Assembly: GCA_035501735.1 (NCBI GenBank)
Contig: DATJVR010000034.1
Location: forward strand, 7,638-71,637
Direction: 5' to 3'
Length of the DNA stretch: 64,000 nucleotides
Origin: Xanthobacteraceae bacterium
GTDB taxonomy: Bacteria > Pseudomonadota > Alphaproteobacteria > Rhizobiales > Xanthobacteraceae
Made by a program: the position numbers and the translations under genes. The notes beneath the pieces are model-generated. The model searched no databases and was not told the DNA's origin. It saw only the letters and a program-made list of their open reading frames with translations. Positions 40,215-58,581 of the stretch are shown piece by piece (positions within the stretch are counted from its first letter, which is position 1; the number at the start of each line of letters is the position of its first letter).

Positions 40215-41447
40215 TTAATTCGGTTGCGGCACTTGGCCGACGGTGGGTGCGATTCGTCGGGTTGCGGCAAGACCAGCGAGCGCAAGGGTCGTGAAGACCG
40301 CGCCTGCCAGAAAGGTGGCCCGAGAGCCGATAGTATCCCAAAGCGCTCCAGCGAGAATGCTCGCGGCAAGCAGGGCCAATCCGATCAGCAGGTTGAAAAG
40401 GCCGTAGGCCGTGCCTCGTAATTCCAGGGGAGCCGTGTCCGCGACGAGGGTCGCGAGCAGTCCCTGGGTGAAACCCAGGTGCAGTCCCCACAAGGCCACG
40501 CCGACTGCCACGCCCGCGATACTGCCCGTGAATGCGAGAACGAGATCCGCCGCAACCAGAATTCCGAAGCCCAGGCCAAGAACAGCGATGCGGTTGGCGC
40601 GGTCCGACAGAGCTCCGGCAGGATACGCAGCGAACGCATAAACAACATTCATCAGCACCAAGACCATTGGCACGAGCATCACAGGCAGTCCGACAGACTG
40701 TGCCTGAAGGATCAGGAAGGCTTCACTGAAGCGCGCAAAGGAGAATAGCACCGCAATACCAACGACCCACCAGTAGGCCAAGCCAAAGCGCCTCAGTTCC
40801 GCGAGGCTGAGAGGTGCGCGCACCTTTCGCAACCTCGGAGGGCGTTCCGGCTCGTGAACGGCAAAAATAAGCAACCCTACGCACAGAAACGCCGGCACAA
40901 CGGCAAACCAGAACACGGCATGAAAGTCATCGGCGGTGAGCCACATCAGCCCAATCGCCAACGCCGGTCCCAAGAATGCACCGACGGTATCGAGCGACTG
41001 CCGGAGACCGAAGCTCGCGCCGCGCAGATGCGTAGGCGCAATATCAGCCACCAGTGCGTCCCGTGGGGCTCCCCTGATACCCTTTCCGATACGGTCAATG
41101 AACCGCGCCGCCACCAGCCAGCCCACGGACGATGCAAGGGGAAATATCGGTTTGGTGAATGCTGACAAACCATAGCCGATGACAGCAAGCAGTTTGCGCC
41201 TGCCCAACCAGTCCGAGATCGAGCCGGAAAACACCTTCGTGATCGAGGCTGTGGCTTCTGCAATGCCTTCGATAAAGCCAACGGTGACCATCGTCGTGCC
41301 AAGGACGGAAACGAGGTAGACCGGCAGCAGCGCGTGAATGATTTCCGAGGAAACATCCATCAGTAACGAGACAAATCCGAGAGCCCAGATGGCCGGGGGA
41401 ATCTCGCGGAGCTGGGAAAAATGAGAGGTCGCCGTATTGTTCTGCAC
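40215..41447 (-). CDS. MFS transporter
   Basis: 410 aa and 12 predicted TM segments, with the loop 2-3 motif DWLGRRKLL. Confidence 0.75.
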   Translation of the reverse strand: MQNNTATSHFSQLREIPPAIWALGFVSLLMDVSSEIIHALLPVYLVSVLGTTMVTVGFIEGIAEATASITKVFSGSISDWLGRRKLLAVIGYGLSAFTKPIFPLASSVGWLVAARFIDRIGKGIRGAPRDALVADIAPTHLRGASFGLRQSLDTVGAFLGPALAIGLMWLTADDFHAVFWFAVVPAFLCVGLLIFAVHEPERPPRLRKVRAPLSLAELRRFGLAYWWVVGIAVLFSFARFSEAFLILQAQSVGLPVMLVPMVLVLMNVVYAFAAYPAGALSDRANRIAVLGLGFGILVAADLVLAFTGSIAGVAVGVALWGLHLGFTQGLLATLVADTAPLELRGTAYGLFNLLIGLALLAASILAGALWDTIGSRATFLAGAVFTTLALAGLAATRRIAPTVGQVPQPN

Positions 41448-41638: not shown

Positions 41639-42130
41639 CTACCTCACAAGACGCTCGCTGATTTGCTTTAGCGTCAATGGACGCAGCGCATCCCCGTCGA
41701 AATAAACAAAACGCAGCCGGCGTCGGCGGGCGACATGCGAGGCGGGAAGGGGATCGTATCGGAAGGTCTTGCCGCCAAGATGCGGCATGACCGCCCCCAC
41801 GTCGGCGATAAATTCGGTTTCCACCCGCAGCAGCGAAAACTTCCTGCCGTCTGCAAGATCGATCTCGAAGGGGACATGCGCGAGGCGCAGGAAGCTGGTC
41901 GGGTCGGTCGCGGCCGTGAAGCCCTCGATGAACGCCGCCTCGACGAGATCAACATCCGGCTCGGAGTGGTCATGATCCGCGTGCGGTGGCTCGCCGCGAT
42001 GCGGGGTCTGCCATTGCGCCACCTTTCCAGGCGGACGCTGATGGTTATGGCCGGCGCCGGCACTTTCGGCATGCGTGGAGCCATTGTGATGATGGTCGTC
42101 GTGATCGTGATGATAGTGCTTGCCGTGCAT
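41639..42130 (-). CDS. His-rich protein of unrecognised family (putative metallochaperone)
   Basis: 15 His in the first 55 residues (MHGKHYHHDHDDHHH...HNH...HADHDH), then a domain of about 105 aa that I do not recognise. The ATG at 42130 has a GAGG that overlaps the stop of the upstream gene. Confidence 0.6.
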   Translation of the reverse strand: MHGKHYHHDHDDHHHNGSTHAESAGAGHNHQRPPGKVAQWQTPHRGEPPHADHDHSEPDVDLVEAAFIEGFTAATDPTSFLRLAHVPFEIDLADGRKFSLLRVETEFIADVGAVMPHLGGKTFRYDPLPASHVARRRRLRFVYFDGDALRPLTLKQISERLVR

Positions 42131-42138
42131 GGCTTGCC

Positions 42139-43347
42139 TCAATAGCGCACAGGTTTGTCGATGATGGTTTTCTGGCTGCCGAGTTTGCCGTGCGCGACGA
42201 GCGAGCCGAGCGCCTCCACCACCACGCGAACGCCGAACAGCGCGGTGATATCCGACGTGTCATAGGGCGGCGAGACTTCGACCACTTCCAGCCCGCAGAT
42301 GCCCTCTGCGGCCACAAGGCCCAGCAGTTTCAGCGCCTCGCGCGGCAGGAAACCGCCGGGTTCCGGCCAGCCGGTGCCTGGCACGAAGCCGCAATCGACT
42401 GAATCCACGTCGAACGAAATATACACCGCATCGGCGTCCTTCCAGGCAAGCTCGAGCGCGATCTCGGCGGTTTTCTCAAGCCCGAACGATTCGATGTCGG
42501 AAATCGTCAGCACGTTGGTCTGGCGCTTACGCGCTTCCTGCACGCCGTAGCGCGGCACCTGCCAGCCGCCGATGCCGAGTTGCACCAGGTTCGTGGCCGA
42601 CACATTGGGCAAGTTCGTCGCCCAATACCAGGGCGTGGTGTGCATGCGTTCGTCGAGGTCCTTCTCCTGAATATCGATATGGCGATCGAAATGGACGATG
42701 CCGATGCGCTTGGACGTGCATTGCGCAATGCCACGCACGCAAGGAAAGCCGATCGAATGATCGCCGCCGAGCATGAGCGGCAGTGCGCCAGAAGAGAACA
42801 CGTGCGCGACACCACGTGAGATCTGGTCGAAACTCTTTTCCAGGTTGGCCGGAATCGTGAATACGTCGCCGGCATCGCACAGCGTCATCTGCTCGCGCAG
42901 GTCGACGCCGAGCTCGTAATTGTAGGGGGTGTACAGTGCCGAGATGCGACGAATTCCCTGCGGTCCAAAACGGGTGCCGGGTCGGTACGTCGTGCCGGAA
43001 TCAAACGGAATGCCAAGCACGGCGGCGTCATATTTGCCGACATCGCGGACATTTTCGACATAGGGTGCCTTGAGGAAGGTATTGATGCCGGCAAAATGCG
43101 GAAGCTCGCCGCGCGAAAATGTCGGGATCGATTTATCGGTGAGACTGTCCGCGCCGGGCAGTCCCATTGAGAGCGCCCATTGCTGCTCCTTGCGCCAGCT
43201 GGCGTCCGAGAGCTTTCCTTCGGCGTCGAGCGCCTTCCAGCCCTGGGTCGCCATCTTGTCGAAATCTGGATGGTGGCGCCGTTCGCGCCGCGGCGGCGGG
43301 AACAGGCCGGCTCCGCGTGAGCGGCGTGTCAAATGGTTCGCCATCAT
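42139..43347 (-). CDS. long-form arginase/agmatinase-fold ureohydrolase (guanidine- or guanidino-compound hydrolase candidate)
   Basis: LGGDHSIGF, HFDRHIDIQ and SFDVDSVDCGFVPGTGWPEPGG metal-ligand motifs. There is an N-terminal extension of about 80 aa relative to ~300-aa agmatinases. An ATGA overlap links it to the upstream gene. Confidence 0.8.
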   Translation of the reverse strand: MMANHLTRRSRGAGLFPPPRRERRHHPDFDKMATQGWKALDAEGKLSDASWRKEQQWALSMGLPGADSLTDKSIPTFSRGELPHFAGINTFLKAPYVENVRDVGKYDAAVLGIPFDSGTTYRPGTRFGPQGIRRISALYTPYNYELGVDLREQMTLCDAGDVFTIPANLEKSFDQISRGVAHVFSSGALPLMLGGDHSIGFPCVRGIAQCTSKRIGIVHFDRHIDIQEKDLDERMHTTPWYWATNLPNVSATNLVQLGIGGWQVPRYGVQEARKRQTNVLTISDIESFGLEKTAEIALELAWKDADAVYISFDVDSVDCGFVPGTGWPEPGGFLPREALKLLGLVAAEGICGLEVVEVSPPYDTSDITALFGVRVVVEALGSLVAHGKLGSQKTIIDKPVRY

Positions 43348-43799
43348 GACATCGCTCCTTGTGTCAGCCGCTCCTCGGCGATGAAAGGATGCACCTGCGG
43401 GATCAGAGATGCCACGAGATGGATCTTCCCGGATATCACACCGCGACGGGATGTCATCTCGTCAGCGATTATTTGCAGCTTGCGGGCGGCGCCCTGCACC
43501 AGAATGACTTCCATAGTCTGATTGTGCATCAGATGCACGTGAAGCGAACTGATCACTTCGTCGATGTAGCGAACCTGCAGGTCGGCCAATTGCTTTTGCA
43601 GGCCGGCCACCGAATTATTGTAGAACAGCGCAATGATGCCGACCATCACGTCCTTGCCTCGGTCGTGGCGGTGCCCGACGACGAACTGATGCAGCATGTC
43701 ATTGATGGCCTGCGAGCGGGTTTCAAAACCGCGCTCCGATATCATCTCATCAAGGTCGTGCAGCAGATTCCTAGGCAACGATATACTAATACGACTCAA
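43344..43799 (-). CDS. NikR-family (ribbon-helix-helix plus ACT-like domain) regulator with non-canonical metal site
   Basis: SRISISLPRNLLHDLDEMISERGFETRSQAINDML aligns to the NikR RHH, and SLHVHLMHNQTMEV aligns to the Ni-site strand. A TTG at 43799, 28 nt after the GS-like stop, gives a NikR-sized protein. Longer alternatives start at 43919 (ATG) and 43937 (TTG) but overlap the upstream gene. Confidence 0.65.
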   Translation of the reverse strand: MSRISISLPRNLLHDLDEMISERGFETRSQAINDMLHQFVVGHRHDRGKDVMVGIIALFYNNSVAGLQKQLADLQVRYIDEVISSLHVHLMHNQTMEVILVQGAARKLQIIADEMTSRRGVISGKIHLVASLIPQVHPFIAEERLTQGAMS

Positions 43800-43827
43800 T
43801 GGCCGGCGGGCTCCGGCGTGTGCGTGC

Positions 43828-45201
43828 CTAGAAGAGATGGCTGTACCGTTCGATTTCCCATGGGCTGATCGCAAGATGGTAGTCCTCCCATTCCTGTGTT
43901 TTATATTTGACGAACTCATCGCGCAGCTCCCTCCCAAGCGTCGCCTCTACCAGGGGATCGGCGGCAAAGGCGTGGACCGCTTCCTGTAGCGTTTGAGGCA
44001 GAAAATCAATATTACGCGCTCGCCGCTCGTTTTCTGAAATGGTGTAGAGGTTGTCCTCGTTCGGCTCGCGCGGATCGATTTTCTCGCGGATTCCTTCAAG
44101 GCCAGCCGCGAGCGCAAGCGTTGCCGCGAGGTAAGGATTGACTGCGCCATCGGCATTGCGGGATTCGCAACGGCCGCCACCGGCCGGGACCCGCACCGAA
44201 TTGGTCCGATTGTTCGAGCCGTAGGAATTGAACACCGGCGCCCAGCTGAAATAGCTCATGGCGCCCTGTCGGACGAGACGCTTGTAACTGTTGACCGTAG
44301 GCGCGAAAGCGGCGCAGAGCGCGCGCCCGTGGCGCAGGATGCCGCCGATGAAGTGGTAGCCAAGCTCGGTCAGCCCGAGACCGCGGCCATCCTTCGAAGG
44401 GTCGCAGGCAAAGGCATTGCGGCCGGTCTTGAGATCGTACAGCGACATATTGAAATGCGCGCCGGTGCCGGTCTTGTGCGCGAACGGCTTGGGCATCATG
44501 GTCGCGAGCAGGCCTTCTTCTTTGGCGAAATGCTTGGTCATGTAGCGAAAGAAGATGAAGCGGTCGCAGGTCATCAGAGCATCGGCGTAACGGAAATCGA
44601 ATTCGTACTGGCCGTTGGCGTCCTCGTGATCGAACGAATAAAGATCCCAGCCGAGTTCGTTGATGCACGTTGCGACCTTGTCGAGCCATTTGAAGTTGTC
44701 GAGAAAGGGGCGCAGGTCGTAACAGGGCTTCGTGAGCTTGTCGTCCGGGTTCGGGACCGAAAGCTTGCCGTCGCCATTTCGTTTGAGCACGAAAACTTCG
44801 CATTCGATGCCGAGATGGAATCCGAACCCCATGTTTGCCGCTCGCGCGAGCACGTTCTTCAGGGCCACGCGCGTGTTGAGCGGATAGGGTTTGCCCTGGA
44901 AGGCATTGTCTGCGGGCATCCAGGCAAGTTTCGGCTCCCACGGCAATTGGATGATGTGATCGAGGTCCGGAACGGACGTGAGCTCGTCCTCGTTCGGCGC
45001 CTGTCCGAGACCATCGAGCGCGTATCCGGTGTAGCGCTCCGAACCATGCGCCATGTGCATCAGATGGTCGAGCGGAACGATCTTGGCTTTCGGCACGCCA
45101 TGAATGTCGACATAGGCGCCGATGCAATATTTGACGCCTTTGGCGCGCAGTTGCTCCTGCGTCTGTTTGATTTTTTCATCGGAATACATCTGACAGTCCA
45201 T
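43828..45201 (-). CDS. glnT: type III (GlnT-like) glutamine synthetase-family ligase
   Basis: GS beta-grasp and catalytic-domain motifs are present ([18 protein letters not shown]...[19 protein letters not shown]...[13 protein letters not shown]). The size and sequence resemble rhizobial GSIII/GmaS-type proteins. The substrate is not assignable. Confidence 0.7.
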
Positions 45202-45229
45202 CGCTCGCACACACCTTCTGCCGGCCGGC

Positions 45230-46159
45230 CTATTCAACGTTGTCGTTGACGTCGGCAAGGCGGACGACCATCGAATAGCTCTCCGCGTCTTCGTCCTCCG
45301 GCTTCGACTGGTGAATCAGCTCTTCCAGTCGCGCCTTGGTGGCGAGAAATTCCGGCGCAAGGAATTGCGCGGAGGTGCGCGGCCGGGGAACTGGAACCTC
45401 GATCATTTCCTGCACCTGGCCGGGATGGGCCGAAAGCACCAGAATGCGGTCGGCGAGAAAAATCGCCTCTTCGAGATCATGGGTGATGAAAACGATGGTG
45501 ATGTCGATCTTGCGCCAGATCTCCAGCAGGTGCGCCTGCATCCGGCAGCGGGTCTGCGCGTCGAGCGCGCCGAAGGGCTCATCCATCAGCAAAATGCGAG
45601 GCTGATTGGCGAGCGCGCGCACGATCGCGACACGCTGCTTCATGCCGCCCGACAGCTGGTGCGGGTAGGCGTCGGAAAATTTTTGCAGGCCGACAAGATC
45701 GAGCCATTGCATCGCCTGTTGCACGGCCTCGTCCTTGCCTTTGCCGTTGATTTCGAGACCAAACATCACGTTCTTTTTCACCGTGAGCCAGGGAAACAGC
45801 GTGTAGCCCTGAAACACCATGCCGCGATCGCTGCCGGGTTCGGTGACCGGCTTGCCCTGCAGCAGAACCTCGCCGCCGGAATTTTCCTCAAGGCCGGCGA
45901 TGATGCGCGCAAGCGTGGATTTCCCGCAGCCCGACGGTCCGATCACGCAAAGGAATTCGCGCCGGTGCGTGGTGAAATTGATGTTGTTGAGAGCAACGGT
46001 CGAACGCTCGCCGGTGTCGAAGATTTTGCTTAGACCCCGCACTTCCAGGATGACCTCGCGCGCCTTCAGGCGCTCAAAGCGCGCCCGGACGGCAGCGCTC
46101 TGATGCAGATAGGACGGGATCGGCTGGGGCGCGACGATTTTGTTCATCTGGCCACCCAT
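45230..46159 (-). CDS. ABC transporter ATP-binding protein (NitT/TauT family)
   Basis: Walker [10 protein letters not shown], signature [15 protein letters not shown], Walker [12 protein letters not shown]. Confidence 0.85.
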
Positions 46160-46162
46160 CGC

Positions 46163-47131
46163 TCAAGCCGTCTTCACGAGTGACCGGTCCCAGGGAAAGA
46201 GGCGCCTGCCGACCAGCGCCAGCATCATATCGGTGCCGAGTCCGATGATGCCGATGATGATGATCGCGGCGTAGACGTTGGCGAAATGCTGGTAGCGGGC
46301 CTGCTGGGTGATGAACCAGGTGATGCCGGACATCGTGCCGATCAGTTCGGCCACGATCAGATAGGTCCAAGCCCAGCCGAGCAGGATGCGCTGGTCGCGA
46401 TAGAGGTCCGGGAGTATGCCGGGTACGACGACGCGGAACAGAAGCTTGGTGTTCCGTGTCCCCAGTGTCAGCGCAGCCTCGACCAGCGCCACGTCGAGTT
46501 TCCGGGTGGTATTGGCAATGATCAGGACCTGCTGAAACAAGGTACCGATGACTATGATGGTGATCTTCGGCCCATCGTAGATGCCGAGGATCGCGACCGC
46601 GAGCGCTCCGAATGCCGGCGCCGGCAGATAACGGAAGAATTCGACAAAAGGTTCGTTGATGCGTGAGAAAATCGCATAGGTGCCGCAAAGGACGCCGAGC
46701 GGCACGCCGATGATCGACGAAATTACAAATCCCCAGAATATGATCTGAATACTATGCCAAAGACTTTGGTGCAGCCACTGGCCGTTTTGTGCAAGCGGCG
46801 GCTCCCTGAACGATTCATAGAGAGCAATGGCGACTTCGTGCGGGGCAGGAAGGTAGATCGGATTGGCCGGGTCGCCTTGCGGCGGCGCCCGATTTTCATT
46901 CCGTGCATCCTCGACCTCGGTCTCGAATGCCGCGTAGTTCATCCGCATGCCCGGCTGCAGAAATTCGACCGAGCCGGGATTCGTGATTCTGACCTGCGGG
47001 TGCCAGACAAATGGGACATAGCTGACGATGCACCAGACAAGGACCGGCAGCACGAACGAGAGCCAGCCGGCCACAAGCCTGGCGTGCGGTGGAAGCGGTC
47101 GCAGGACCTGGAACAACCGGATCCACTTCAT
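46163..47131 (-). CDS. ABC transporter permease (NitT/TauT family) with extended N-terminal periplasmic segment
   Basis: The EAA-like loop region EAALTLGTRNTKLLFRVVVPGILP is present. Confidence 0.8.
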   Translation of the reverse strand: MKWIRLFQVLRPLPPHARLVAGWLSFVLPVLVWCIVSYVPFVWHPQVRITNPGSVEFLQPGMRMNYAAFETEVEDARNENRAPPQGDPANPIYLPAPHEVAIALYESFREPPLAQNGQWLHQSLWHSIQIIFWGFVISSIIGVPLGVLCGTYAIFSRINEPFVEFFRYLPAPAFGALAVAILGIYDGPKITIIVIGTLFQQVLIIANTTRKLDVALVEAALTLGTRNTKLLFRVVVPGILPDLYRDQRILLGWAWTYLIVAELIGTMSGITWFITQQARYQHFANVYAAIIIIGIIGLGTDMMLALVGRRLFPWDRSLVKTA

Positions 47132-47154
47132 CGCAATCTACACCCGTCCGCGCG

Positions 47155-48138
47155 CTACTGCGCGTTGATGAGCGATGCGTCGATGTAGCTGTCTATCTTT
47201 TGCGACTCCTTGTAGACCTCGTTTTTCACATTGAAATCGTTGGCGATCTTGGAAGAACCGTAGAGTGAGGTGAGGCCTTCGCCTTTCTTGAACACCTTCT
47301 TGCCCTCGGCAACGTCGATCAGCTTAGTGCCCTTCAACAGCGGCTTATAGGCTTCCGGCGTAAGGCCGACGCGCGCCGCCATGATTTTCACGGCATCGTC
47401 TTGAGTCTTTGGATCGTTGATGTAATGCACGACTCGATCCCAGACCTTGATCACCTTTATCCACTCGGCCTTGCGGGCATTCAGACTTGCGGGTGTCACG
47501 GCGAGGACGTCATAGATAAGGCCGGGCGCCGAGGCGGAGGTGTAAATCGGCTTCGAGCCCGCGAGCGCTTTCATGGCTTCGCCGGATATCGGCTGCCATG
47601 CACCGATTGCATCGACCTGACCTGACGCAAGAACCTGTGGCGTTTCATTGGTCTTTGCGTTCACCAGCGTGACGTCCTTTTCCTTCATTCCGGCTTTTTC
47701 CATGGCGTGCAGCAGCAACAGGTGCTCGACCAGGCCAATTTCGATGCCGACCTTCTTGCCCTTCAGGTCCTTGATGCTTTTGATGCCGGGCTTGGCGACG
47801 ATCATGTCGTTGCCGTTGGAATAATCGGTGAGCATGATCATGATGCCCTTGCCGCCGCCCGCACCGGTGACCAGTGTGTCGCCGTTGGTCATGAGATTGC
47901 CGTCAAGTTTGCCGGCAGTGAACGCATCCATGGACGCCGAGTAGTCGAACCATTGGAATGTCACGTCGACACCCGCCTCCTTGAACCATCCCTTGTTGAT
48001 GGCGACTTCCCAGGCGACCCAGCCTGGCCAATCGCTGTAGCCAACCGTGAGCGGTGCAGCCAAAGCCGCATTTGCCCCGGATAACGCGAGCGAGAGTGCC
48101 AGTGCAGCAAGCGACGCAAATTTTCTCTTGAGACTCAT
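47155..48138 (-). CDS. ABC transporter periplasmic substrate-binding protein (NitT/TauT, NMT1-like fold)
   Basis: Signal peptide MSLKRKFASLAALALSLALSGANAALA, and LTVGYSDWPGWVAWEVA typical of the family. The ATG at 48138 has a GGAGG SD. Confidence 0.8.
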   Translation of the reverse strand: MSLKRKFASLAALALSLALSGANAALAAPLTVGYSDWPGWVAWEVAINKGWFKEAGVDVTFQWFDYSASMDAFTAGKLDGNLMTNGDTLVTGAGGGKGIMIMLTDYSNGNDMIVAKPGIKSIKDLKGKKVGIEIGLVEHLLLLHAMEKAGMKEKDVTLVNAKTNETPQVLASGQVDAIGAWQPISGEAMKALAGSKPIYTSASAPGLIYDVLAVTPASLNARKAEWIKVIKVWDRVVHYINDPKTQDDAVKIMAARVGLTPEAYKPLLKGTKLIDVAEGKKVFKKGEGLTSLYGSSKIANDFNVKNEVYKESQKIDSYIDASLINAQ

Positions 48139-48152
48139 GACCACCTCCATTG

Positions 48153-48182
48153 CGTAATACGAAATCCAGATTTCGTATTACG
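48153..48182 (-). promoter_or_regulatory. perfect 13-4-13 palindrome CGTAATACGAAAT-CCAG-ATTTCGTATTACG (operator-like, NikR-type 6-N16-6 geometry)
   Basis: Arms have no mismatches. It lies between the -12 element of the minus-strand sigma-54 promoter and the SD of the SBP gene. Confidence 0.5.
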
Positions 48183-48185
48183 TGC

Positions 48186-48201
48186 TGCAAGCCATGTGCC
48201 A
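48186..48201 (-). promoter_or_regulatory. sigma-54 (-24/-12) promoter for the SBP...His-rich operon
   Basis: The minus strand reads TGGCACATGGCTTGCA, a full match to TGGCAC-N5-TTGC(A/T). Confidence 0.7.
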
Positions 48202-48441
48202 GACAGGCGGCCTATCAGCGTTCGTGAAAGGCTGCGGCAAGTGATTGCGAGGGCAGTGTTTTGGCGGAGAGAGGGGTCGTCGCTACGACTGCTCAGCGAG
48301 GATCGGAAGCACAATTTATGCTCGCAGCAAGCGGCAGGCTGCCCAAAGTCTAAGCAGTGCCTTGATTTGCGAAGGCTGTGTGACAGTCCTCTGACAGAAA
48401 AAAGGGACAATTAAGTCAATAAGTTGGTCCACGCCGCGAAT

Positions 48442-48456
48442 TGGCACCCTTCTTGC
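48442..48456 (+). promoter_or_regulatory. sigma-54 (-24/-12) promoter for urtA
   Basis: TGGCACCCTTCTTGC is a full match to TGGCAC-N5-TTGC. It lies about 60 nt upstream of the urtA ATG. Confidence 0.7.
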
Positions 48457-48515
48457 GAAGCACCAGACGCGAACGGCATCCAGCCGCTACGCGTGCGTCA
48501 ACAGAGGGCTTTGCA

Positions 48516-49829
48516 ATGTTCAATCCCATATCCGCGGTCGCGCGACCGCATGCCCGCCGCTGGCTTGCCGCTACGGCGGGGTTAGCGTTGGGTCTGGCAA
48601 TGGCAATGCCGGCGAAGGCTCAGGACACGATCAAAATCGGAATCCTGCACTCGCTTTCCGGCACCATGGCAATCAGCGAAACCACGTTGAAAGACGTGAT
48701 GCTGATGCTCATCGACGAACAGAACAAAAAAGGAGGGCTGCTCGGGAAAAAGCTCGAAGCGGTTGTCGTCGATCCCGCCTCAAACTGGCCTTTGTTTGCC
48801 GAAAAGGCGCGCGAGCTTATCTCCAAGGACAAGGTTGCCGTCGTATTCGGCTGCTGGACGTCGGTTTCGCGCAAATCGGTGCTGCCGGTGTTCAAGGAAC
48901 TCAACTCGATCCTGTTCTATCCGGTGCAGTATGAGGGCGAGGAGAGCGAGAAAAACGTCTTTTACACGGGTGCCGCGCCAAACCAGCAAGCCATACCCGC
49001 GGTCGATTACCTCATGAAAGAGGAAAAGGTGGTGCGCTGGGTATTGGAAGGCACCGACTATGTGTATCCGCGAACGACCAACAAAATCCTTGAAGCCTAT
49101 TTGAAGAGCAAAGGCGTCAAGGATTCGGACATCTCCATCAACTACACGCCATTCGGTCACTCCGACTGGCAAACCCGAGTCGCGGCGATCAAGAAATTTG
49201 GTTCAGAAGGCCGCAAGACGGCGGTGGTCTCGACCATCAACGGTGACGCCAACGTGCCTTTCTACAAGGAACTCGGCAACCAAGGCGTGAAGGCCAAGGA
49301 CATCCCCGTGGTCGCGTTCTCGGTCGGCGAAGAAGAGCTCGCCGGCATCGACACCAAACCGCTGGTCGGACACCTTGCTGCCTGGAACTATTTCGAGTCG
49401 ATCAATACTCCGGCGAACAAGGAGTTCATCGAAAAGTGGCACGCCTTTACCAAGAATCCGAAGCGCGTCACCAATGACCCGATGGAAGCCCATGTGATCG
49501 GCTTCGCCATGTGGGTGAAGGCGGTGGAGAAGGTGAAGACGACTGACGCCACCAAGGTGATAGATGCTCTCCCCGGCATTACCGCCCCCAATCTGACCGG
49601 CGGGACTTCAACCATGCTGCCCAATCATCACATCACCAAGCCAGTCTTCATCGGCGAAGTGAAGGCAGATGGTCAGTTCAACATCGTGTGGAAGACGCCG
49701 GGGCTGGTCCCGGGTGACGCATGGTCGAAGGAACTGCCCGATTCCAAGAACCTGATTGGCGACTGGGTAACGCTTAAGTGCGGCAACTACGACACTGTGA
49801 AAAAGAAGTGTCTCGGCAGCGGTACCTGA
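48516..49829 (+). CDS. urtA: urea ABC transporter substrate-binding protein
   Basis: Signal peptide then QDTIKIGILHSLSGTMAISE and GCWTSVSRKSVLPV, typical of UrtA. The ATG at 48516 is used because the listed ORF start at 48441 overlaps the promoter. Confidence 0.9.
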   Translation: MFNPISAVARPHARRWLAATAGLALGLAMAMPAKAQDTIKIGILHSLSGTMAISETTLKDVMLMLIDEQNKKGGLLGKKLEAVVVDPASNWPLFAEKARELISKDKVAVVFGCWTSVSRKSVLPVFKELNSILFYPVQYEGEESEKNVFYTGAAPNQQAIPAVDYLMKEEKVVRWVLEGTDYVYPRTTNKILEAYLKSKGVKDSDISINYTPFGHSDWQTRVAAIKKFGSEGRKTAVVSTINGDANVPFYKELGNQGVKAKDIPVVAFSVGEEELAGIDTKPLVGHLAAWNYFESINTPANKEFIEKWHAFTKNPKRVTNDPMEAHVIGFAMWVKAVEKVKTTDATKVIDALPGITAPNLTGGTSTMLPNHHITKPVFIGEVKADGQFNIVWKTPGLVPGDAWSKELPDSKNLIGDWVTLKCGNYDTVKKKCLGSGT

Positions 49830-49903
49830 TCATACCAAAGCAAACGTGCTAAAAATGGAGGCAGCAGGCTTCTGTTGCCTCCATTACTTTTTCGGAGCTC
49901 CAA

Positions 49904-51514
49904 ATGGTTGCAGGTTCGGCGCGAATTGCGCTGCTGTTGTTCGGACTCGTTGCGTTGCTGCTGAGCGTCCGGCAGGGACTGGCCGAGAGCTACGAGGAGG
50001 CGCTCGCACGCTTCACGACCGACAGTTACAGCGAGACCGAGACCGGCATCGAGGCGATCACGGCAAGCGGCAATCCTTTGGCTGCTCAGGTCCTCGATGC
50101 CTTGCAAAACGAACGGCTGCTCTACGATCCATCGACGCATAAGGTCTACATCAAGACCGATGCAGATCAGCTGCTCGATGCCGCGAATGGTCAGCCGGTG
50201 GCGAGCGCTCCCGCAGATCTGCAGACCGTTGGCCTCACCAATCGGTTACGTCGCGCCATCGATGCGGCGCTCGGTAATCTGACCTTGCAATCGCCTGACG
50301 CGGCCAAGCGTCTCGATGCCGCGCGCGCGGTATTCAAATCGCGTGAAGCCAACACGTTACCCGCGCTCGATGCGGCGCTCGCAAAGGAATCGGATCCATC
50401 CGTGAAACGCGCGCTCATCGAAGCGCGCGCGGCCGTTGTGCTCAATCGCGATGATGCCACGGAAGCGGCCAAGCTTGATGCCATCGCGGTGCTGCGAGCG
50501 CGCGGCGACCAGGACGCGGTCGCGGTGCTTGCCGGAGCGGCTGCGGATGCGCCCGCTTCGGTGGTGCGCGCATCGAAGGATGCAGTTGCGGCGATCGAAA
50601 GCCGGCTGGCCGCGTGGGCCACGGTGCAAAATGCTTGGTACGGCCTTTCTCTCGGCTCGGTTCTGCTGCTGGCGGCCATCGGTCTTGCGATTACTTTCGG
50701 CGTGATGGGCGTAATCAATATGGCGCATGGCGAGATGGTGATGCTTGGCGCCTATGTGACGTTCGTTGTTCAGGAATTGATCCGTACTCACAACCCGGCC
50801 CTTTCCGATGTCTCGCTTGTGTTTGCGGTCCCGTTGGCGTTTCTTTTTGCTGGATTCGTCGGTGTGTTGATCGAGCAGGGCATCATTCGTTTTCTCTACG
50901 GACGACCGCTGGAGACTCTGCTCGCAACCTGGGGCCTTTCGCTCATCCTGCAACAGGCTGTTCGCACGGCGTTTGGCCCGACCAACAAGGAGGTCAGCAA
51001 CCCGTCGTGGATGAGCGGTGCGTTCCAGCTTGGCCAGATCACCGTTACCTACAATCGTCTGTGGATCATTTGCTTCACGCTTGGCGTTTTCGCCGCGTTG
51101 CTCGTGCTGCTGCGTTACACCCGGCTAGGCCTGGAAATGCGCGCGGTTACGCAAAATCGGTCGATGGCGGCATCGATGGGCATTCGCACCGCCCGGGTCG
51201 ACGCGCTCACGTTCGGGCTTGGTTCAGGGATCGCGGGAATCGCGGGTGTGGCGCTGTCGCAGATCGACAACGTAAGCCCCAATCTCGGCCAGGGTTACAT
51301 CATCGACAGTTTCATGGTCGTGGTCTTTGGCGGCGTCGGCAATCTTTGGGGCACGCTGGTTGGTGCGTTCACGCTCGGCATCGCCAACAAATTCCTCGAA
51401 CCGTACGCAGGAGCGGTGCTCGGGAAGATCGCAATCCTCGTGTTCATCATCCTGTTCATCCAGAAACGACCGCGCGGACTGTTTGCGTTGAAGGGCAGGG
51501 CGGTCGAAACATGA
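49904..51514 (+). CDS. urtB: urea ABC transporter permease with long N-terminal periplasmic extension
   Basis: The C-terminal ~300 aa are a LivH-type permease (INMAHGEMVMLGAY). Confidence 0.85.
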   Translation: MVAGSARIALLLFGLVALLLSVRQGLAESYEEALARFTTDSYSETETGIEAITASGNPLAAQVLDALQNERLLYDPSTHKVYIKTDADQLLDAANGQPVASAPADLQTVGLTNRLRRAIDAALGNLTLQSPDAAKRLDAARAVFKSREANTLPALDAALAKESDPSVKRALIEARAAVVLNRDDATEAAKLDAIAVLRARGDQDAVAVLAGAAADAPASVVRASKDAVAAIESRLAAWATVQNAWYGLSLGSVLLLAAIGLAITFGVMGVINMAHGEMVMLGAYVTFVVQELIRTHNPALSDVSLVFAVPLAFLFAGFVGVLIEQGIIRFLYGRPLETLLATWGLSLILQQAVRTAFGPTNKEVSNPSWMSGAFQLGQITVTYNRLWIICFTLGVFAALLVLLRYTRLGLEMRAVTQNRSMAASMGIRTARVDALTFGLGSGIAGIAGVALSQIDNVSPNLGQGYIIDSFMVVVFGGVGNLWGTLVGAFTLGIANKFLEPYAGAVLGKIAILVFIILFIQKRPRGLFALKGRAVET

Positions 51515-52653
51515 GCCACGTTATTGGCCGCCAGTTCGATAGCGTTTCCGTCGCATTCGTTGCCATGATCGCGATTGTCGCGGTTGCGGTGCCGGTCTCG
51601 AATCTCGCATTTCCGCCGAGCTCTCCGTTCCATGTGCCGATCTATATCGTATCGCTGCTCGGCAAATATGTGTGCTATGCCCTGCTCGCGCTTTCGATTG
51701 ATTTGATCTGGGGTTACTGCGGAATTCTGTCGCTCGGCCACGGCGCGTTCTTTGCGCTCGGCGGCTATGCCATGGGCATGTACCTGATGCGGCAGATTGG
51801 AACGCGCGGCGTGTACGGCAACCCGATCCTGCCGGATTTCATGGTGTTCCTGAATTGGCCGGAACTTCCGGTCTATTGGTATGGGTTTCAGCACTTTGCC
51901 TATGCGGCGCTGATGGTTTTGCTGGTGCCTGGCGTCCTGGCGTTCGTGTTCGGCTGGTTTGCGTTCCGCAGCCGCGTGACCGGTGTTTATCTATCGATCA
52001 TCACGCAGGCGCTGACGTTTGCGCTGTTGCTCGGATTCTTCCGCAACAATTTCGGTTTCGGCGGAAACAACGGCCTGACCGATTTCAAGGAAATCCTGGG
52101 ATTCAACGTACAGGCGCCGGGAACTCGCGTGGCGCTGTTCTCGATTTCGTGCATCGCGCTGTTGGTTGGTTTCGTGATCTGCCGCGGTGTCATCACGTCT
52201 AAATTCGGCAAGGTGCTGGTGGCAATTCGCGATGCGGAAGCGCGCGTGCGATTCCTCGGCTATCGCGTCGAGAACTACAAGCTGTTCGTGTTCACACTTT
52301 CGGCCTGTATGGCCGGCGTTGCCGGTGCGCTCTATGTGCCGCAGGTCGGCATCATCAATCCGAGCGAGTTTTCGCCCGGCAATTCCATCGAGGCGGTGAT
52401 CTGGGTGGCGGTCGGCGGTCGCGGCACGCTGATCGGCGCCGTGATTGGCGCGATCGCGGTCAACTACGCCAAGACGACTTTCACCACCGGAATGCTGGCG
52501 CCCTATTGGCTGTTTCTGCTCGGGGGGCTGTTCATTGCGGTCACCCTGCTGCTGCCGCGCGGAATCGTCGGCACGCTGCAGCAATGGTGGCATGATCGTC
52601 GCAAATCTGCGGTCGAACCCAACACCGAGACTGCGGCAAGGCTTGCGGAGTAA
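51511..52653 (+). CDS. urtC: urea ABC transporter permease
   Basis: The ATG at 51511 overlaps the urtB stop (ATGA). LivM-type permease (GILSLGHGAFFALGGY). The upstream part of listed ORF 50614..52653 is an out-of-frame artefact over urtB. Confidence 0.85.
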   Translation: MSHVIGRQFDSVSVAFVAMIAIVAVAVPVSNLAFPPSSPFHVPIYIVSLLGKYVCYALLALSIDLIWGYCGILSLGHGAFFALGGYAMGMYLMRQIGTRGVYGNPILPDFMVFLNWPELPVYWYGFQHFAYAALMVLLVPGVLAFVFGWFAFRSRVTGVYLSIITQALTFALLLGFFRNNFGFGGNNGLTDFKEILGFNVQAPGTRVALFSISCIALLVGFVICRGVITSKFGKVLVAIRDAEARVRFLGYRVENYKLFVFTLSACMAGVAGALYVPQVGIINPSEFSPGNSIEAVIWVAVGGRGTLIGAVIGAIAVNYAKTTFTTGMLAPYWLFLLGGLFIAVTLLLPRGIVGTLQQWWHDRRKSAVEPNTETAARLAE

Positions 52654-52656
52654 GCG

Positions 52657-53409
52657 ATGAACGACCGTACCACCAATGCCTTGCTCTACCTCGACGGCGT
52701 GAATGTATCGTTCGACGGCTTCCGCGCACTGAACAATCTCTCGCTCGCGGTCGAGCCCGGCGAAATGCGCGCGATCATCGGCCCGAATGGCGCTGGCAAG
52801 ACCACGATGATGGATGTGGTGACGGGAAAAACGCGGCCTGATACGGGTGAGGTGTTTTTCGAAGGGACGCACGATCTTTCCAAACTCGACGAGACCGAAA
52901 TCGCGACGCTCGGCATCGGCCGCAAGTTTCAGAAGCCGACGGTATTCGAAATGCACACGGTCGAGGACAACCTGTCCCTGGCCTTGAAGAACGACCGCCA
53001 CGTGCGCGCGACATTGTTCTGGCAGGGCAACGGCGAGGATAAAGACCGCATCGATCGGATTCTGGAAACCATAAGGCTCGGCGCCCAGCGAGATCGCCCG
53101 GCCGGCAGCCTGTCGCACGGACAAAAGCAGTGGCTGGAGATCGGCATGCTGCTGGCGCAGGAGCCGAAATTGCTGCTGGTGGATGAGCCGGTCGCCGGCA
53201 TGACCGACGCCGAGACGCGGCAGACCGTGGATCTGCTGAAGGAAATCAACCGCGACCGCACGATCGTCGTGGTGGAGCACGACATGACATTCGTGCGCGA
53301 TCTCGATGTTCGAGTCACGGTGCTGCACGAGGGTTCGGTGATCGCCGAAGGATCGATCGACCAGGTGTCAACGAACGAGCGTGTGGTCGAAGTCTACTTG
53401 GGGCGATGA
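52657..53409 (+). CDS. urtD: urea ABC transporter ATP-binding protein
   Basis: GPNGAGKTT, LSHGQKQWLEIGMLL and LLLVDEPVAGM. Confidence 0.85.
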   Translation: MNDRTTNALLYLDGVNVSFDGFRALNNLSLAVEPGEMRAIIGPNGAGKTTMMDVVTGKTRPDTGEVFFEGTHDLSKLDETEIATLGIGRKFQKPTVFEMHTVEDNLSLALKNDRHVRATLFWQGNGEDKDRIDRILETIRLGAQRDRPAGSLSHGQKQWLEIGMLLAQEPKLLLVDEPVAGMTDAETRQTVDLLKEINRDRTIVVVEHDMTFVRDLDVRVTVLHEGSVIAEGSIDQVSTNERVVEVYLGR

Positions 53410-53428
53410 GCTTGTGACGGGAACGGCG

Positions 53429-54124
53429 ATGCTCGAAGTGAACGCGGTTGACCTTCATTATGGCGCGGCGCAGGCGCTGCGATCTGTCTCGCTCACGGCG
53501 GAACTTGGCGAGGTCACGTGCGTGCTCGGCCGTAACGGCGTCGGCAAGACGAGCCTGTTGCGCGCGATCGTTGGACAGCATTCCGTCAGTTCGGGCTCCG
53601 TCGTGTGGGAGGGCACGGATATCACGACGCTGAAGCCCTATGAGCGCGCACGGCGCGGCATTGCCTATGTGCCGCAGGGCCGGGAGATTTTTCCGCTGCT
53701 CACGGTCGAAGAAAATCTGAAGACCGGGTTTGCGCCACTCGGGCGTGAGCAACGCAGCATTCCCGACGATGTGTTTTCGCTGTTTCCCGTGCTGGCGACG
53801 ATGCTGCGCCGGCGCGGCGGTGATCTTTCAGGCGGGCAGCAGCAGCAGCTCGCGATCGGGCGGGCACTGGTGATGCGGCCGAGGCTGTTGTTGCTGGACG
53901 AGCCGACCGAGGGGATTCAGCCGTCGATAATCAAGGATATCGGGCGTGCCATCAGCTATTTGCGCGGGCTCAAGCAGATGGCGATCGTTCTGGTCGAGCA
54001 ATATCTCGATTTCGCCCGTGACCTCGGCGATCGATTTTCGGTCGTTGACCGCGGCACGATCGTTTATGCTAGCCAGCGCAAGGATTTGAACGAAGCGGCG
54101 CTCAAACAATCTCTTTCCTTATAG
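53429..54124 (+). CDS. urtE: urea ABC transporter ATP-binding protein
   Basis: GRNGVGKTS, LSGGQQQQLAIGRAL and LLLLDEPTEGIQP. Confidence 0.85.
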   Translation: MLEVNAVDLHYGAAQALRSVSLTAELGEVTCVLGRNGVGKTSLLRAIVGQHSVSSGSVVWEGTDITTLKPYERARRGIAYVPQGREIFPLLTVEENLKTGFAPLGREQRSIPDDVFSLFPVLATMLRRRGGDLSGGQQQQLAIGRALVMRPRLLLLDEPTEGIQPSIIKDIGRAISYLRGLKQMAIVLVEQYLDFARDLGDRFSVVDRGTIVYASQRKDLNEAALKQSLSL

Positions 54125-54134: not shown

Positions 54135-54983
54135 ATGAAAACCAGAGCCGCCAATCAAGCCTTAGCGATTGACCGCGATGAAACGCTGATCGCCAACCGT
54201 GCACGCGGGCGAATAGATCTTATAGTCAGCGCGGCGGATGGCAGGACGCGCCGGAGGCGCGTGGCGGAAGACGGGTCGCTGCGGGTGCGGTTTCCGCGGA
54301 CCGTGGGCGGCGAACTCGAGGCAGTGATCGTCAATACCGCTGGTGGAATCGCGGGCGGCGACCGGCATGAGGTTAGCGTTTCGGCACGAGATAATGCGAA
54401 TCTCGTCGTCACCACGGCGGCGGCAGAAAAAATATACCGCTCGATCGGACCGGATGCGTCAATCGAGGTGACATTGGATGTCGGCGCGGGCGGCAGATTG
54501 GCATGGCTGCCGCAGGAGGCCATCGTGTTCGATCGCGGGCGGCTGTCACGAAGGATCGACGTCGATATTTCCGGCGACGGCATGGTGACGGTTGCGGAAA
54601 TGGCGGTGTTCGGGCGCTCTGCCATGGGAGAGCTGGTGGAGCAGGGATCGTTCGTCGACCGCTGGCGTGTGCGGCGCGACAGGCGCCTTGTGTTTGCAGA
54701 GACCGTGAGGCTCGACGGAGCGGTCGCGCAGAAACTCGCCGAACCGGGGGTCGCCGCCGGAGGTGCGGCCATCGCGACCGTGCTGGTTTGTCCAGGCGAT
54801 GAGACATTGGCCGCAAATGTTCGCGCTCTGGCAGGCAGCTTTGCCGGAGAGGTCGGGATTTCTGCGTGGAATGGAATCGCGGTGGCGCGGCTCTGCGGCA
54901 AGGACGGCGCCAGCGTACGGAGCGATCTGACCGCTGTGTTGACTGCGCTCGGCGCGCCGCTACCGCGGCTTTGGCTAAACTGA
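54135..54983 (+). CDS. ureD: urease accessory protein UreD
   Basis: Position first in the ure cluster. The motifs [10 protein letters not shown] and LAWLPQE are typical. Confidence 0.8.
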
Positions 54984-54993
54984 GAGCGCAAGC

Positions 54994-55296
54994 ATGAACC
55001 TCACGCCGCGGGAAAAAGACAAGCTCCTGATCGCGATGGCGGCGATGGTGGCGCGCCGGCGACTTGAGCGCGGCGTCAAACTCAATCATCCGGAGGCGGT
55101 GGCGCTGATCACCGATTTCATCATGGAAGGCGCGCGCGACGGCAAAACCGTTGCGCAATTGATGGAAGCGGGCACGACAGTGCTTACGCGCAAGCAGGTG
55201 ATGGACGGCATTCCGGAGATGATCCACGATATCCAGGTCGAGGCGACGTTTCCCGACGGCACGAAGCTCGTCACGGTCCACGATCCCATTCGGTGA
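54994..55296 (+). CDS. ureA: urease gamma subunit
   Basis: [35 protein letters not shown] is the canonical UreA N-terminus. Confidence 0.95.
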
Positions 55297-55307
55297 ATGA
55301 GGCGCTC

Positions 55308-55613
55308 ATGAAGCCCGGCGAATTCTTCATCAAGACAGGCGAGATCGAGCTCAACAAGAAACGCAAAACGGTGACGCTCACAGTCGCCAACACCGGCGAC
55401 CGTCCGATTCAGGTCGGCTCGCATTATCATTTCTTCGAGACCAATCCGGCGCTCGAATTCGACCGCAAGAAGGCGCGCGGCATGCGGCTCGACATCGCGG
55501 CGGGCACGGCCGTGCGTTTCGAGCCCGGCCAAAGCCGCAAGGTCACGCTCGTCGCACTCGCAGGCGCGCGCAAAGTCTACGGTTTTCGACAAGAGATCAT
55601 GGGCAAGCTCTGA
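55308..55613 (+). CDS. ureB: urease beta subunit
   Basis: MKPGEF...[32 protein letters not shown]. Confidence 0.95.
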
Positions 55614-55622
55614 GGGGAATGC

Positions 55623-57335
55623 ATGTCGATCAAGATGAAGCGCGCGATCTATGCCGACATGTTCGGGCCGACGATCGGCGACCGCGTGCGTCTTGCCGAC
55701 ACCAACCTCATCATCGAAATCGAGAAGGATTTCACCACCTATGGCGAAGAGGTGAAGTTCGGCGGCGGCAAGGTGATCCGCGATGGCATGGGCCAGAGCC
55801 AGATCGCCAACAAACAAGGCGCCGTCGATACCGTCATCACCAATGCAATTGTGCTCGACCATTGGGGGATCGTGAAGGCCGACGTCGGCATCAAGCAGGG
55901 AAAGATTTTCGCCATCGGCAAGGCCGGCAATCCCGACATCCAGCCGGGCGTGACGATCATCATCGGACCTGGCACCGAGGTGATCGCGGGCGAGGGGAAA
56001 ATCCTCACGGCCGGCGGCTTCGACACGCACATCCATTTCATCTGCCCGCAACAGGTGGATGAGGCGCTGATGTCGGGGGTCACTTCGATGCTCGGCGGCG
56101 GTACCGGGCCGGCGGCCGGCACCAACGCCACGACCTGCACGCCCGGCCCCTGGCATATCGGGCGCATGATTCAGGCGGCGGACGCATTCCCGGTCAATCT
56201 GGGATTTGCCGGCAAGGGCAATGCCTCGCGCCCCGCCGCACTTGAAGAAATGATCGAGGCAGGCGCCTGCGCGCTGAAGCTGCACGAGGATTGGGGCACC
56301 ACGCCGGCGGCGATCGATTGCTGCCTGTCTGTGGCCGACGATTACGACGTGCAGGTGATGATCCACACCGACACGCTGAACGAGAGCGGTTTCGTCGAGG
56401 ATACGATCGCATCGTTCAAAGGCCGCACCATCCATGCTTTTCACACCGAGGGCGCAGGCGGCGGACACGCGCCCGATATCATAAAAGTCGCGGGGCTGAA
56501 AAACGTGTTGCCGTCTTCGACCAACCCGACGCGGCCGTTCACGCGCAACACGATCGACGAACATCTCGACATGCTTATGGTGTGCCACCATCTCGATCCA
56601 TCGATCGCGGAGGATTTGGCGTTTGCGGAAAGCCGCATTCGCAAGGAGACGATCGCAGCCGAGGACATCCTGCACGATCTCGGCGCGCTGTCGATGATGT
56701 CGTCGGACAGCCAGGCCATGGGGCGGCTCGGCGAAGTCATCATTCGCACGTGGCAGACCGCGGACAAGATGAAGAAGCAGCGCGGGCGTTTCAAATCCGA
56801 AAAGGGCGACAACGATAACGTTCGCGTCAAACGATACATCGCCAAATACACGATCAATCCGGCTATCGCGCATGGCGTGTCGAAACACATCGGTTCGGTC
56901 GAGAGAGGCAAGCTTGCCGATCTGGTGCTGTGGTCGCCGGCATTTTTCGGGGTCAAACCCGATCTCGTGATCAAGGGCGGCTCGATCGTAGCGGCGCCCA
57001 TGGGCGATCCGAACGCTTCGATTCCGACTCCGCAACCGGTGCATTACCGACATATGTTCGGCGCGTTTGGCCGTGCGCGCACCGCGAGCTCGGTCGTGTT
57101 CGTATCGCAGGCGGCTGCGAGCGCCGACATTGGCGAAAGGCTCGGTATCGAGAAGGAGCTGGTCGCGGTGCAAAACACCCGTGGCGGCATCTCGAAGAAA
57201 TCCATGGTGCACAACGACGCTACGCCGAAAATCGATGTCGATCCGGAAACCTACGAAGTGCGCGCCAACGGTGAATTGCTGACCTGCGCGCCCGCCGAGG
57301 TGCTGCCGATGGCGCAGCGCTATTTTCTTTTCTGA
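55623..57335 (+). CDS. ureC: urease alpha subunit
   Basis: 570 aa with [18 protein letters not shown] (the carbamylated Lys region), MVCHHLD and AFAESRIR. Confidence 0.95.
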
Positions 57336-57341
57336 CAGGAC

Positions 57342-58566: not shown

Positions 58567-58581
58567 GCTTCGAGTTTTGCA

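Follow-up and report, generated by a model that had tools for sequence, protein, structure and literature searches.

Which nitrogen compound is handled by a gene cluster that lies back to back with urea import and urease genes, what switches that cluster on and how does its metal enzyme obtain nickel? These questions are raised by a 64,000-nucleotide stretch of contig DATJVR010000034.1 from a Xanthobacteraceae bacterium (hereafter the window, meaning the whole stretch analysed), in which seven minus-strand genes encode an ATP-binding cassette (ABC) importer, a ligase resembling glutamine synthetase (GS), a NikR-like regulator, an arginase-fold hydrolase and a histidine-rich (His-rich) protein. 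We conclude with reasonable confidence that this operon lets a Xanthobacteraceae/Pseudolabrys-type alphaproteobacterium use free guanidine as a nitrogen source. Judged by sequence, the hydrolase is an orthologue of the guanidine hydrolase GdmH and not a new enzyme. The core of the system (importer, GdmH, nitrogen control and urease) is already known guanidine assimilation; relative to the literature found, our analysis suggests that three elements are new: the His-rich partner, a NikR-family regulator together with its operator, and a linked ligase of the GmaS type. The features are as follows.

48186-48201, minus strand: sigma-54 (-24/-12) promoter TGGCACATGGCTTGCA, a match to TGGCAC-N5-TTGCW
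48154-48181, strandless: candidate operator of the NikR-like repressor, GTAATACG-N12-CGTATTAC, a 6-N16-6 inverted repeat
47155-48138, minus strand: periplasmic substrate-binding protein (SBP) of a NitT/TauT-type ABC importer, putatively for guanidine (NMT1/NMT1_2)
46163-47131, minus strand: ABC permease (BPD_transp_1)
45230-46159, minus strand: ABC ATPase (ABC_tran)
43828-45201, minus strand: GS-like gene, predicted GmaS/GlnT-type gamma-glutamyl ligase (Gln-synt_C, TIGR03105)
43344-43799, minus strand: NikR-family ribbon-helix-helix regulator without the canonical nickel site, putative repressor (RHH_1 and NikR_C)
42139-43347, minus strand: predicted GdmH orthologue with an arginase fold, nickel-dependent in characterised members (Arginase family and guanidinase matches)
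41639-42130, minus strand: His-rich GdmH partner of 163 residues, putative nickel delivery or maturation factor (no family match)
48441-54124, plus strand: urtABCDE urea ABC importer, divergent and outside the operon (NCBIfam UrtA, B, C, D and E equivalogs, all above cut-off)
54135-59199, plus strand: urease cluster ureD-A-B-C-E-F-G, outside the operon (NCBIfam and Pfam matches)

In the pathway that we propose, transcription would start from the sigma-54 promoter, presumably under nitrogen limitation, and a NikR-family repressor would bind GTAATACG-N12-CGTATTAC over the transcription start until released by guanidine or a close derivative, doing the job of the guanidine-I riboswitch that holds this position in most related operons. 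The NitT/TauT-type transporter would import guanidine, the GdmH orthologue would convert it to urea and ammonium, and the neighbouring urease would turn the urea into ammonia. The His-rich protein, predicted to be translationally coupled to the hydrolase, would supply GdmH with nickel or insert it, in the role that the HypA/HypB-like GhaA/GhaB have in cyanobacteria. Least certain is the step assigned to the GmaS/GlnT-type ligase, an optional accessory that would probably use ATP-dependent gamma-glutamylation to capture a product or by-product containing nitrogen.

The hydrolase groups with guanidine hydrolases

The hydrolase matched Synechocystis Sll1077 (7esr/7oi1) at 542 bits and 65% identity and the Nitrospira inopinata guanidinase (9fek) at 525 bits and 60% identity; the next enzyme, guanidinobutyrase, reached 173 bits, and solved agmatinases 113-132 bits. 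Ligands of the binuclear metal centre (D196, H197, D221, H223, D225, D313 and D315, in the motifs GGDHS, HFDRHxD and SFDVD) were invariant in alignment A1. The same was true of the comammox guanidinase signature, which consists of Thr105, His222, Trp313 and Glu344 in N. inopinata numbering (PMC11410670) and maps to T120, H236, W327 and E357 of the hydrolase (alignment to 9fek, chain offset +2). With the N. inopinata enzyme, methylguanidine, arginine, creatine and guanidino acids yielded no detectable urea, and the cyanobacterial enzyme behaves likewise according to the same paper (PMC11410670). Because of the match scores, the signature residues and these substrate data, the agmatine reading is rejected and free guanidine is most likely the substrate. 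The sequence-only reading had named GdmH as the closest described case; the comparison goes further, in that the hydrolase itself scores as a GdmH orthologue (542 and 525 versus 173 bits) and keeps all four signature residues. The scavenging route then proposed, from a guanidino compound through urea to ammonia, is likewise supported.

We scanned one genome per species and obtained 80 gdmH loci at ≥73% identity, nearly all in Alphaproteobacteria, with Bradyrhizobium, Mesorhizobium, Sinorhizobium, Roseibium, Thalassospira and Azospirillum among the taxa (loci are cited below by number, for example L003). An identical hydrolase was found on soil metagenome contigs in the same gene order, and the closest named genome is a Pseudolabrys metagenome-assembled genome (MAG; 92% identity). 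The alternative offered with the earlier comparison, in which a classical manganese agmatinase would convert agmatine to putrescine and urea, can point to RefSeq relatives labelled ‘agmatinase family protein’ (next to ‘hypothetical protein’) and to weak matches to agmatinase models. Both agmatinase NCBIfam models stayed below their cut-offs, however, and the scores and signature residues rule out an agmatinase or other ureohydrolase identity. Together with the guanidine-I riboswitches that precede 60 of the 80 orthologous operons, this placement excludes the agmatine route, which we regard as vanishingly improbable. One locus (L050) carries three more distant arginase-family paralogues at 28-36% identity (2490-3383 and the 15022-16922 region), as well as an allophanate-hydrolase-like gene and a divergent GS-like/creatininase-like pair around gdmH.

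Promoter, operator and riboswitch

The promoter TGGCACATGGCTTGCA is the sole exact TGGCAC-N5-TTGCW in the 64-kb window, with 0.02 expected by chance, which confirms the consensus sigma-54 promoter first read from the sequence; the motif also precedes the transporter genes in about 50 of the 80 related loci. Directly behind it, the candidate operator GTAATACG-N12-CGTATTAC begins 4 nt past the -12 element, leaves 15 nt between its end and the SBP start codon and is unique in the window (chance expectation, none). Its consensus across loci can be written GTAWTAC-N14-GTAWTAC or GTAWTA-N16-TAWTAC. Exact copies of the latter occur in 26 loci, one copy each and at the same position, and 10 more loci, carboxylase-type ones included, carry it with one mismatch; no copy was found in about 70 loci without the NikR-type module. 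The chance expectation, estimated from pattern degeneracy, is about 0.5 exact copies in 2.15 Mb. In the nik operator of Escherichia coli, GTATGA-N16-TCATAC, the 6-bp half-sites of an inverted repeat lie 16 bp apart, and by this comparison the geometry of the candidate operator is equal to it. The palindrome arms reach 14 bp in the window itself. Reading them as an RNA hairpin is disfavoured, as only the 8-bp half-sites are conserved across loci and the variable spacers are non-complementary in other loci, which argues for a protein site.

A guanidine-I riboswitch (RF00442; Rfam and our own model R1) lies between promoter and SBP gene in the 60 riboswitch-bearing genome loci, with a sigma-54 motif 20-29 nt upstream of it in 43. 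Searched with Rfam and model R1, the window and the leaders of all NikR-type loci showed no such riboswitch; operator and riboswitch hold the same position after the sigma-54 promoter. The alphaproteobacterial logic, as far as these leaders indicate, appears to be sigma-54 plus either a riboswitch or a NikR-like repressor, and we infer that the operon depends on NtrC. In cyanobacteria, NtcA and a riboswitch control the same guanidine genes (PMC12704784).

Two hybrid loci connect the two arrangements. In L003 and L005 a riboswitch and then the palindrome precede a window-type transporter, which is followed by gdmH and the His-rich gene, and no NikR-like gene lies within 10 kb; their leaders (6719-7056 in L003 and 3240-3577 in L005) contain a second GGCA-N6-TTGC-like element between riboswitch and palindrome. 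The SBP of L003 is 76% identical to that of the window, and the riboswitch in front of this type of transporter ties it to guanidine. The SBP itself came closest to the NCBIfam models SsuA_fam and TIGR03427 (urea-carboxylase-associated SBP), both below cut-off. An SBP-permease-ATPase set stands upstream of gdmH in most of the 80 loci and falls into two subtypes, one like that of the window (about 76-84% identity) found only in Xanthobacteraceae-like MAGs and a TIGR03427-like one (about 30%) elsewhere. In the window-type module the permease is kept at 78-91% identity, and the ATPase is also conserved.

Two further observations concern regulatory elements in the related loci. An inverted repeat, ATTTCC-N3-5-GGAAT, lies 25-45 nt upstream of the -24 element in L006, L008, L015, L083, L098, L101, L128 and L142 and could be an activator or integration host factor (IHF) site; it was not evident in the upstream region of the window. 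In L159 (and also in L161, L156 and L162), a guanidine-I riboswitch (13894-14002 in L159) stands directly upstream of a TonB-dependent receptor gene (14120-16705), a few kilobases downstream of the NikR-type module; a guanidine-II match was obtained in L159 as well (3085-3131, minus strand).

A NikR-family regulator that follows guanidine modules

The NikR-like protein combines RHH_1 (PF01402) and NikR_C (PF08753) domains, matches Pyrococcus horikoshii NikR at 112 bits and exceeds the cut-off of the NikR equivalog NF003381 (115 versus 105 bits). Alignment to the E. coli and P. horikoshii proteins showed that, of the canonical nickel ligands in E. coli numbering, H87 and H89 are kept while H76 is replaced by V and C95 by T. 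All 120 closest homologues have F or V at position 76 and T at 95, with H87 and H89 invariant.

A metagenome scan with this subfamily gave 80 loci, which together with the other loci brings those carrying the gene to 89. It is preceded by the GS-like gene in 66 of these and by the ABC ATPase gene in 14. Downstream, gdmH follows in 45, cgdA in 18 (then cgdB and the genes for guanidine carboxylase and allophanate hydrolase) and neither in 19. In this third type the gene directly after the regulator belongs to the peptide-deformylase family, as at 10445-10981 in L159. Standing beside either gdmH or cgdA, the regulator tracks guanidine modules whether or not their enzyme needs nickel.

Could the protein nevertheless be a true nickel sensor that couples the operon to nickel supply and so prevents apo-GdmH from being made without its cofactor? 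Its family membership above the NF003381 cut-off, its two invariant histidines and the presence of a nickel enzyme in the operon, next to urease, all speak for this. The replacement of H76 and C95, which belong to the square-planar nickel site, in 120 of 120 homologues speaks against it, as do the occurrence of the same subfamily and operator at biotin-dependent guanidine carboxylase operons, where no nickel is needed, and the occupation of the guanidine riboswitch position. We therefore consider nickel sensing unlikely. The pattern of neighbours and residues suggests instead that the protein probably reports guanidine and would act as the repressor of the operon, and the annotation ‘nickel-responsive regulator’ is a likely misannotation of a protein that probably does not sense nickel.

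The His-rich partner and its possible role in nickel loading

A homologue of the His-rich protein directly follows gdmH in all 80 loci from genomes and in each of the 29 metagenome loci that extend far enough, at a median gap of 17 nt in relatives, and was never found after carboxylase genes in the loci examined. The protein has 1907 close homologues (E ≤ 0.001), every one labelled hypothetical, and a search of 1.84 billion representatives gave 238 family representatives at 50% clustering, all of them short. Two apparent GdmH-His-rich fusions, P0307 and P0349, were frameshift artefacts. Conserved features comprise the N-terminal M1-H2, a G-H-N (GHN) motif, H44 and QWQTPH (DHLHSHVHG in a second subfamily), and the C-terminal domain contains DPTSFLRL, PHLGG and RYDPLP; the median histidine count among the first 60 residues is 15. 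The AlphaFold (AF2) model has a disordered N-terminus (residues 1-59) and a conserved alpha/beta C-terminal domain (residues 60-163), with block-mean predicted local distance difference test (pLDDT) values of 78-94 over residues 61-160. No family or fold was found for the protein by Pfam, NCBIfam or PDB profile search, and Foldseek of the model against the PDB gave no neighbour (best E 0.1, TM-score < 0.2); similarity in sequence or fold to the nickel chaperones HypA, HypB, UreE, SlyD and CooJ was also not found.

With a UreG probe, which is adequate for HypB, no HypB-type GTPase was detected within 10 kb in the 80 loci or in the window, where only the true ureG matched. HypA gave no match in the window or the 80 loci either, a weak negative given the low sensitivity of the probe. 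The absence of HypA/HypB read earlier from the sequence therefore stands for HypB, with the HypA part carrying less weight. In about 13 loci (Mesorhizobium, Sinorhizobium and Azospirillum; for example, L017 11768-12367) a HupE/UreJ nickel permease gene directly follows the gdmH-His-rich pair, which supports nickel use by these enzymes; the window has no HupE/UreJ gene.

From its linkage and composition, the His-rich protein would be the best candidate for a nickel loader or maturation factor. The sequence-only reading had placed it, together with the NikR-like protein, where the HypA/HypB-like loaders would be expected. The first half of that proposal is upheld by the 80 of 80 linkage, which makes the His-rich protein the conserved partner of the hydrolase. 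The second half is not, since the NikR-like protein is by its sequence a DNA-binding regulator with a conserved operator, has lost two of four nickel ligands and is equally tied to the nickel-independent carboxylase route.

Rather than inserting nickel, the partner might store or buffer it, or might serve GdmH as a structural or regulatory subunit. Its His tract varies in length and composition, as in storage proteins, no GTPase partner is present, and the conservation of the C-terminal domain points to a specific contact with another protein. Yet M1-H2, GHN and H44 are conserved as specific positions and not as bulk histidine, and in the loci examined the gene is found strictly with gdmH and with no other nickel enzyme; a subunit role stays compatible with these points. 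We judge a store or subunit somewhat unlikely and prefer a role in nickel delivery.

The ligase and the question of substituted guanidines

The GS-like protein carries a Gln-synt_C domain and scores 648 bits against TIGR03105 (cut-off 470). In the PDB it came closest to glutamate--methylamine ligase 9qur (375 bits), followed by GmaS of Rhodovulum, 7cql (341 bits); true GS scored about 240 bits. Compared with the true GS structures 8oow, 8s59 and 8tfb, it has Thr in place of Asp50' and Trp in place of the Glu of the Glu flap, the latter with a 4-residue insertion, while alignment to 7cql showed that equivalents of GmaS Asp177, Glu186 and Arg312 as well as W300 are kept. Judged by the active-site residue criteria of PMC7948447, the loss of ammonia-binding residues and the retention of GmaS catalytic residues identify the gene, at the level of sequence, as a GmaS/GlnT-type gamma-glutamyl ligase without the ammonia-binding residues of GS. 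The earlier label ‘GSIII-like’ is to be understood here as the rhizobial GlnT/GmaS type (about 450 residues) and not the GlnN type (about 700 residues). Likewise, the trapping of an amine by gamma-glutamylation, as then suggested, is consistent with the GmaS-like active site, and its putrescine/agmatine part falls away.

The ligase is optional in the module, and so is a creatininase-family gene (PF02633) that often lies between the ATPase and GS-like genes (L084 5827-6588 and many of L087-L166) and is absent from the window. Both bear on the possibility that the substrate is a substituted guanidine (methylguanidine, for instance, or a compound derived from creatinine), which the hydrolase would split into urea and an amine, and that the ligase traps this amine as a gamma-glutamyl amide. 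The GmaS-type active site, the creatininase-family gene so often beside the ligase in related modules and the lack of a guanidine riboswitch in the window fit such a substrate. The hydrolase, however, keeps every guanidinase signature residue, no urea was detected when the guanidinase was given the substituted compounds listed above (PMC11410670) and orthologous operons stand behind a highly guanidine-specific riboswitch; moreover, most gdmH loci lack the ligase, and it also accompanies the carboxylase route. A substituted substrate is accordingly very unlikely in our view, and free guanidine remains the preferred one.

A 2-oxoglutarate-Fe(II) dioxygenase gene (DIOX_N and 2OG-FeII_Oxy) lies upstream of some gdmH genes (L005, 4998-6551; L049, L050, L052 and L070) and may relate to recently described methylguanidine dioxygenases or to others that release guanidine.

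Operon structure and genomic neighbourhood

All seven open reading frames (ORFs) are present on the minus strand and span 41639-48138. The gaps are 23 nt from SBP to permease, 3 nt from permease to ATPase, and 28 nt both from ATPase to GS-like gene and from there to the NikR-like gene; the NikR-like stop and hydrolase start share a 4-nt ATGA overlap (43344-43347), and 8 nt separate the hydrolase from the His-rich gene, with a GAGG overlapping the hydrolase TGA stop. The tight cluster described from the sequence, with its ATGA overlap and a Shine-Dalgarno sequence over the hydrolase stop, is thus confirmed in position and spacing, and NCBIfam and Pfam matches establish the divergent urtABCDE and the complete urease cluster behind it. 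Spacing and conserved gene order suggest that the seven genes would be co-transcribed. Alternative starts exist for the GS-like gene (45201 or 45189) and the NikR-like gene (TTG at 43799 or, in the gene call, an upstream in-frame start at 43874).

We mapped neighbourhoods by targeted tblastn and dropped greedy longest-ORF clustering, in which antisense shadow ORFs in GC-rich DNA produced noise. These maps did not bear out conservation of the full seven-gene composition. Of the 80 genome loci, 3 have the GS-like gene and 5 the NikR-like gene, both genes being limited to a Xanthobacteraceae-like subset.

Downstream of the His-rich gene, at a distance of 191 nt, lies a major facilitator superfamily (MFS) transporter gene (40215-41447, minus strand) that is kept only in the nearest relatives, L087 and L088. 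No terminator-like site was found between the two genes to mark the 3' end of the transcript. On the other side, cbb3 oxidase genes come after ureDABCEFG. An Rfam match to 5_ureB_sRNA (92 bits; 55778-56064, minus strand), antisense inside ureC and also present in L105, is probably conserved urease coding sequence and not a real small RNA.

Weight of the evidence and implications

Several points weigh against the pathway as proposed. The enzyme activity and its metal, the binding of DNA and co-transcription are each deduced from sequence. On the regulatory side, the coexistence of riboswitch and palindrome in L003 and L005 means that the two devices are not strictly alternatives, a simple regular-expression search found no upstream sites of the NtrC or enhancer-binding-protein type, and the retained H87 and H89 make some metal binding by the regulator possible. 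As to nickel, no fold could be recognised in the C-terminal domain of the His-rich protein, and a few members of its family have few histidines; a loader may also not be essential, because the N. inopinata guanidinase was active in E. coli with 1 mM nickel and no chaperone (PMC11410670). Finally, characterised GdmH releases urea and ammonium only, yet the ligase is without the residues that bind ammonia; a role for it does not follow from the pathway.

With these points in mind, we advance one joint claim tentatively, as a real possibility that falls short of an even chance: that a NikR-family protein without a nickel site is a repressor responsive to guanidine or a guanidine derivative and that, at the same time, the His-rich protein is a GTPase-independent nickel insertase for an arginase-fold enzyme. 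If true, the former would be the first guanidine sensor that is a protein, replacing a riboswitch position for position and serving both the hydrolase and the carboxylase routes, and the latter, with its previously unseen domain, would explain how GdmH matures in many bacteria without GhaA/GhaB. Our literature search, whose coverage was incomplete so that an earlier description is possible, found no description of the His-rich partner, the NikR-like gene or the GS-like gene in guanidine loci.

Guanidine has only lately been recognised as a widespread nitrogen source, and its nickel-dependent hydrolase has been characterised in cyanobacteria and comammox Nitrospira. GdmH is common in soil and marine Alphaproteobacteria, rhizobia included, and the loci described here offer a concrete candidate for how nickel might reach it without HypA/HypB. 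A candidate protein sensor of guanidine could also complement riboswitch-based tools.

Comparison with known systems

The best-described counterpart is the gdmH-ghaA-ghaB and gimABC system of Synechocystis, which shares with the window an orthologous enzyme, an adjacent ABC importer of the same superfamily and the passage of urea to urease, along with induction by nitrogen limitation and a guanidine-specific input (PMC12704784). Where Synechocystis has the HypA/HypB-like GhaA/GhaB, the window has an unrelated His-rich protein, and where Synechocystis uses NtcA and a riboswitch, the window has sigma-54 and probably a NikR-family repressor, with a GmaS-type ligase added. Comammox Nitrospira likewise has an orthologous guanidinase (60% identity) with no HypA/HypB-type chaperones nearby, noted there as unexpected, but relies on an APC permease and a guanidine-I riboswitch (PMC11410670).

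Closer to the window are the riboswitch-type operons of other Alphaproteobacteria (Bradyrhizobium, Mesorhizobium, Sinorhizobium, Roseibium, Thalassospira and Azospirillum; L009-L082), which have the sigma-54 promoter, the order importer, gdmH and His-rich gene, and no HypB-like match within 10 kb. They differ in their guanidine-I riboswitch, their TIGR03427-type transporter and the lack of NikR-like and GS-like genes, and some add HupE/UreJ. The guanidine carboxylase operons (CgdAB, guanidine carboxylase and allophanate hydrolase; L084 and others), in turn, share the window-type importer, the GS-like ligase, the NikR-like regulator and the operator, but encode biotin-dependent enzymes and no His-rich protein.

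The individual proteins show a similar mixture of likeness and difference. The regulator resembles the NikR proteins of E. coli and P. horikoshii in its ribbon-helix-helix and NikR_C domains and in the strand of the former (R3, S5 and S7 versus R3, T5 and T7), whereas H76, C95 and H62 are replaced, a C-terminal extension (LIPQxHPF) is conserved and the associated genes serve guanidine use rather than nickel uptake. The GS-like ligase agrees with GmaS and rhizobial GlnT in its TIGR03105 match, GmaS-type substitutions and catalytic Asp, Glu and Arg, but has no N-methylglutamate pathway genes nearby and is linked to guanidine modules. The His-rich protein differs from HypA, HypB, UreE and similar proteins in sequence and fold, with no zinc ribbon and no GTPase partner, yet has in common with them a His-rich tract and adjacency to a nickel enzyme gene. 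The nickel site of HypA is MHE, and the conserved Met-His N-terminus of the His-rich protein is reminiscent of it.

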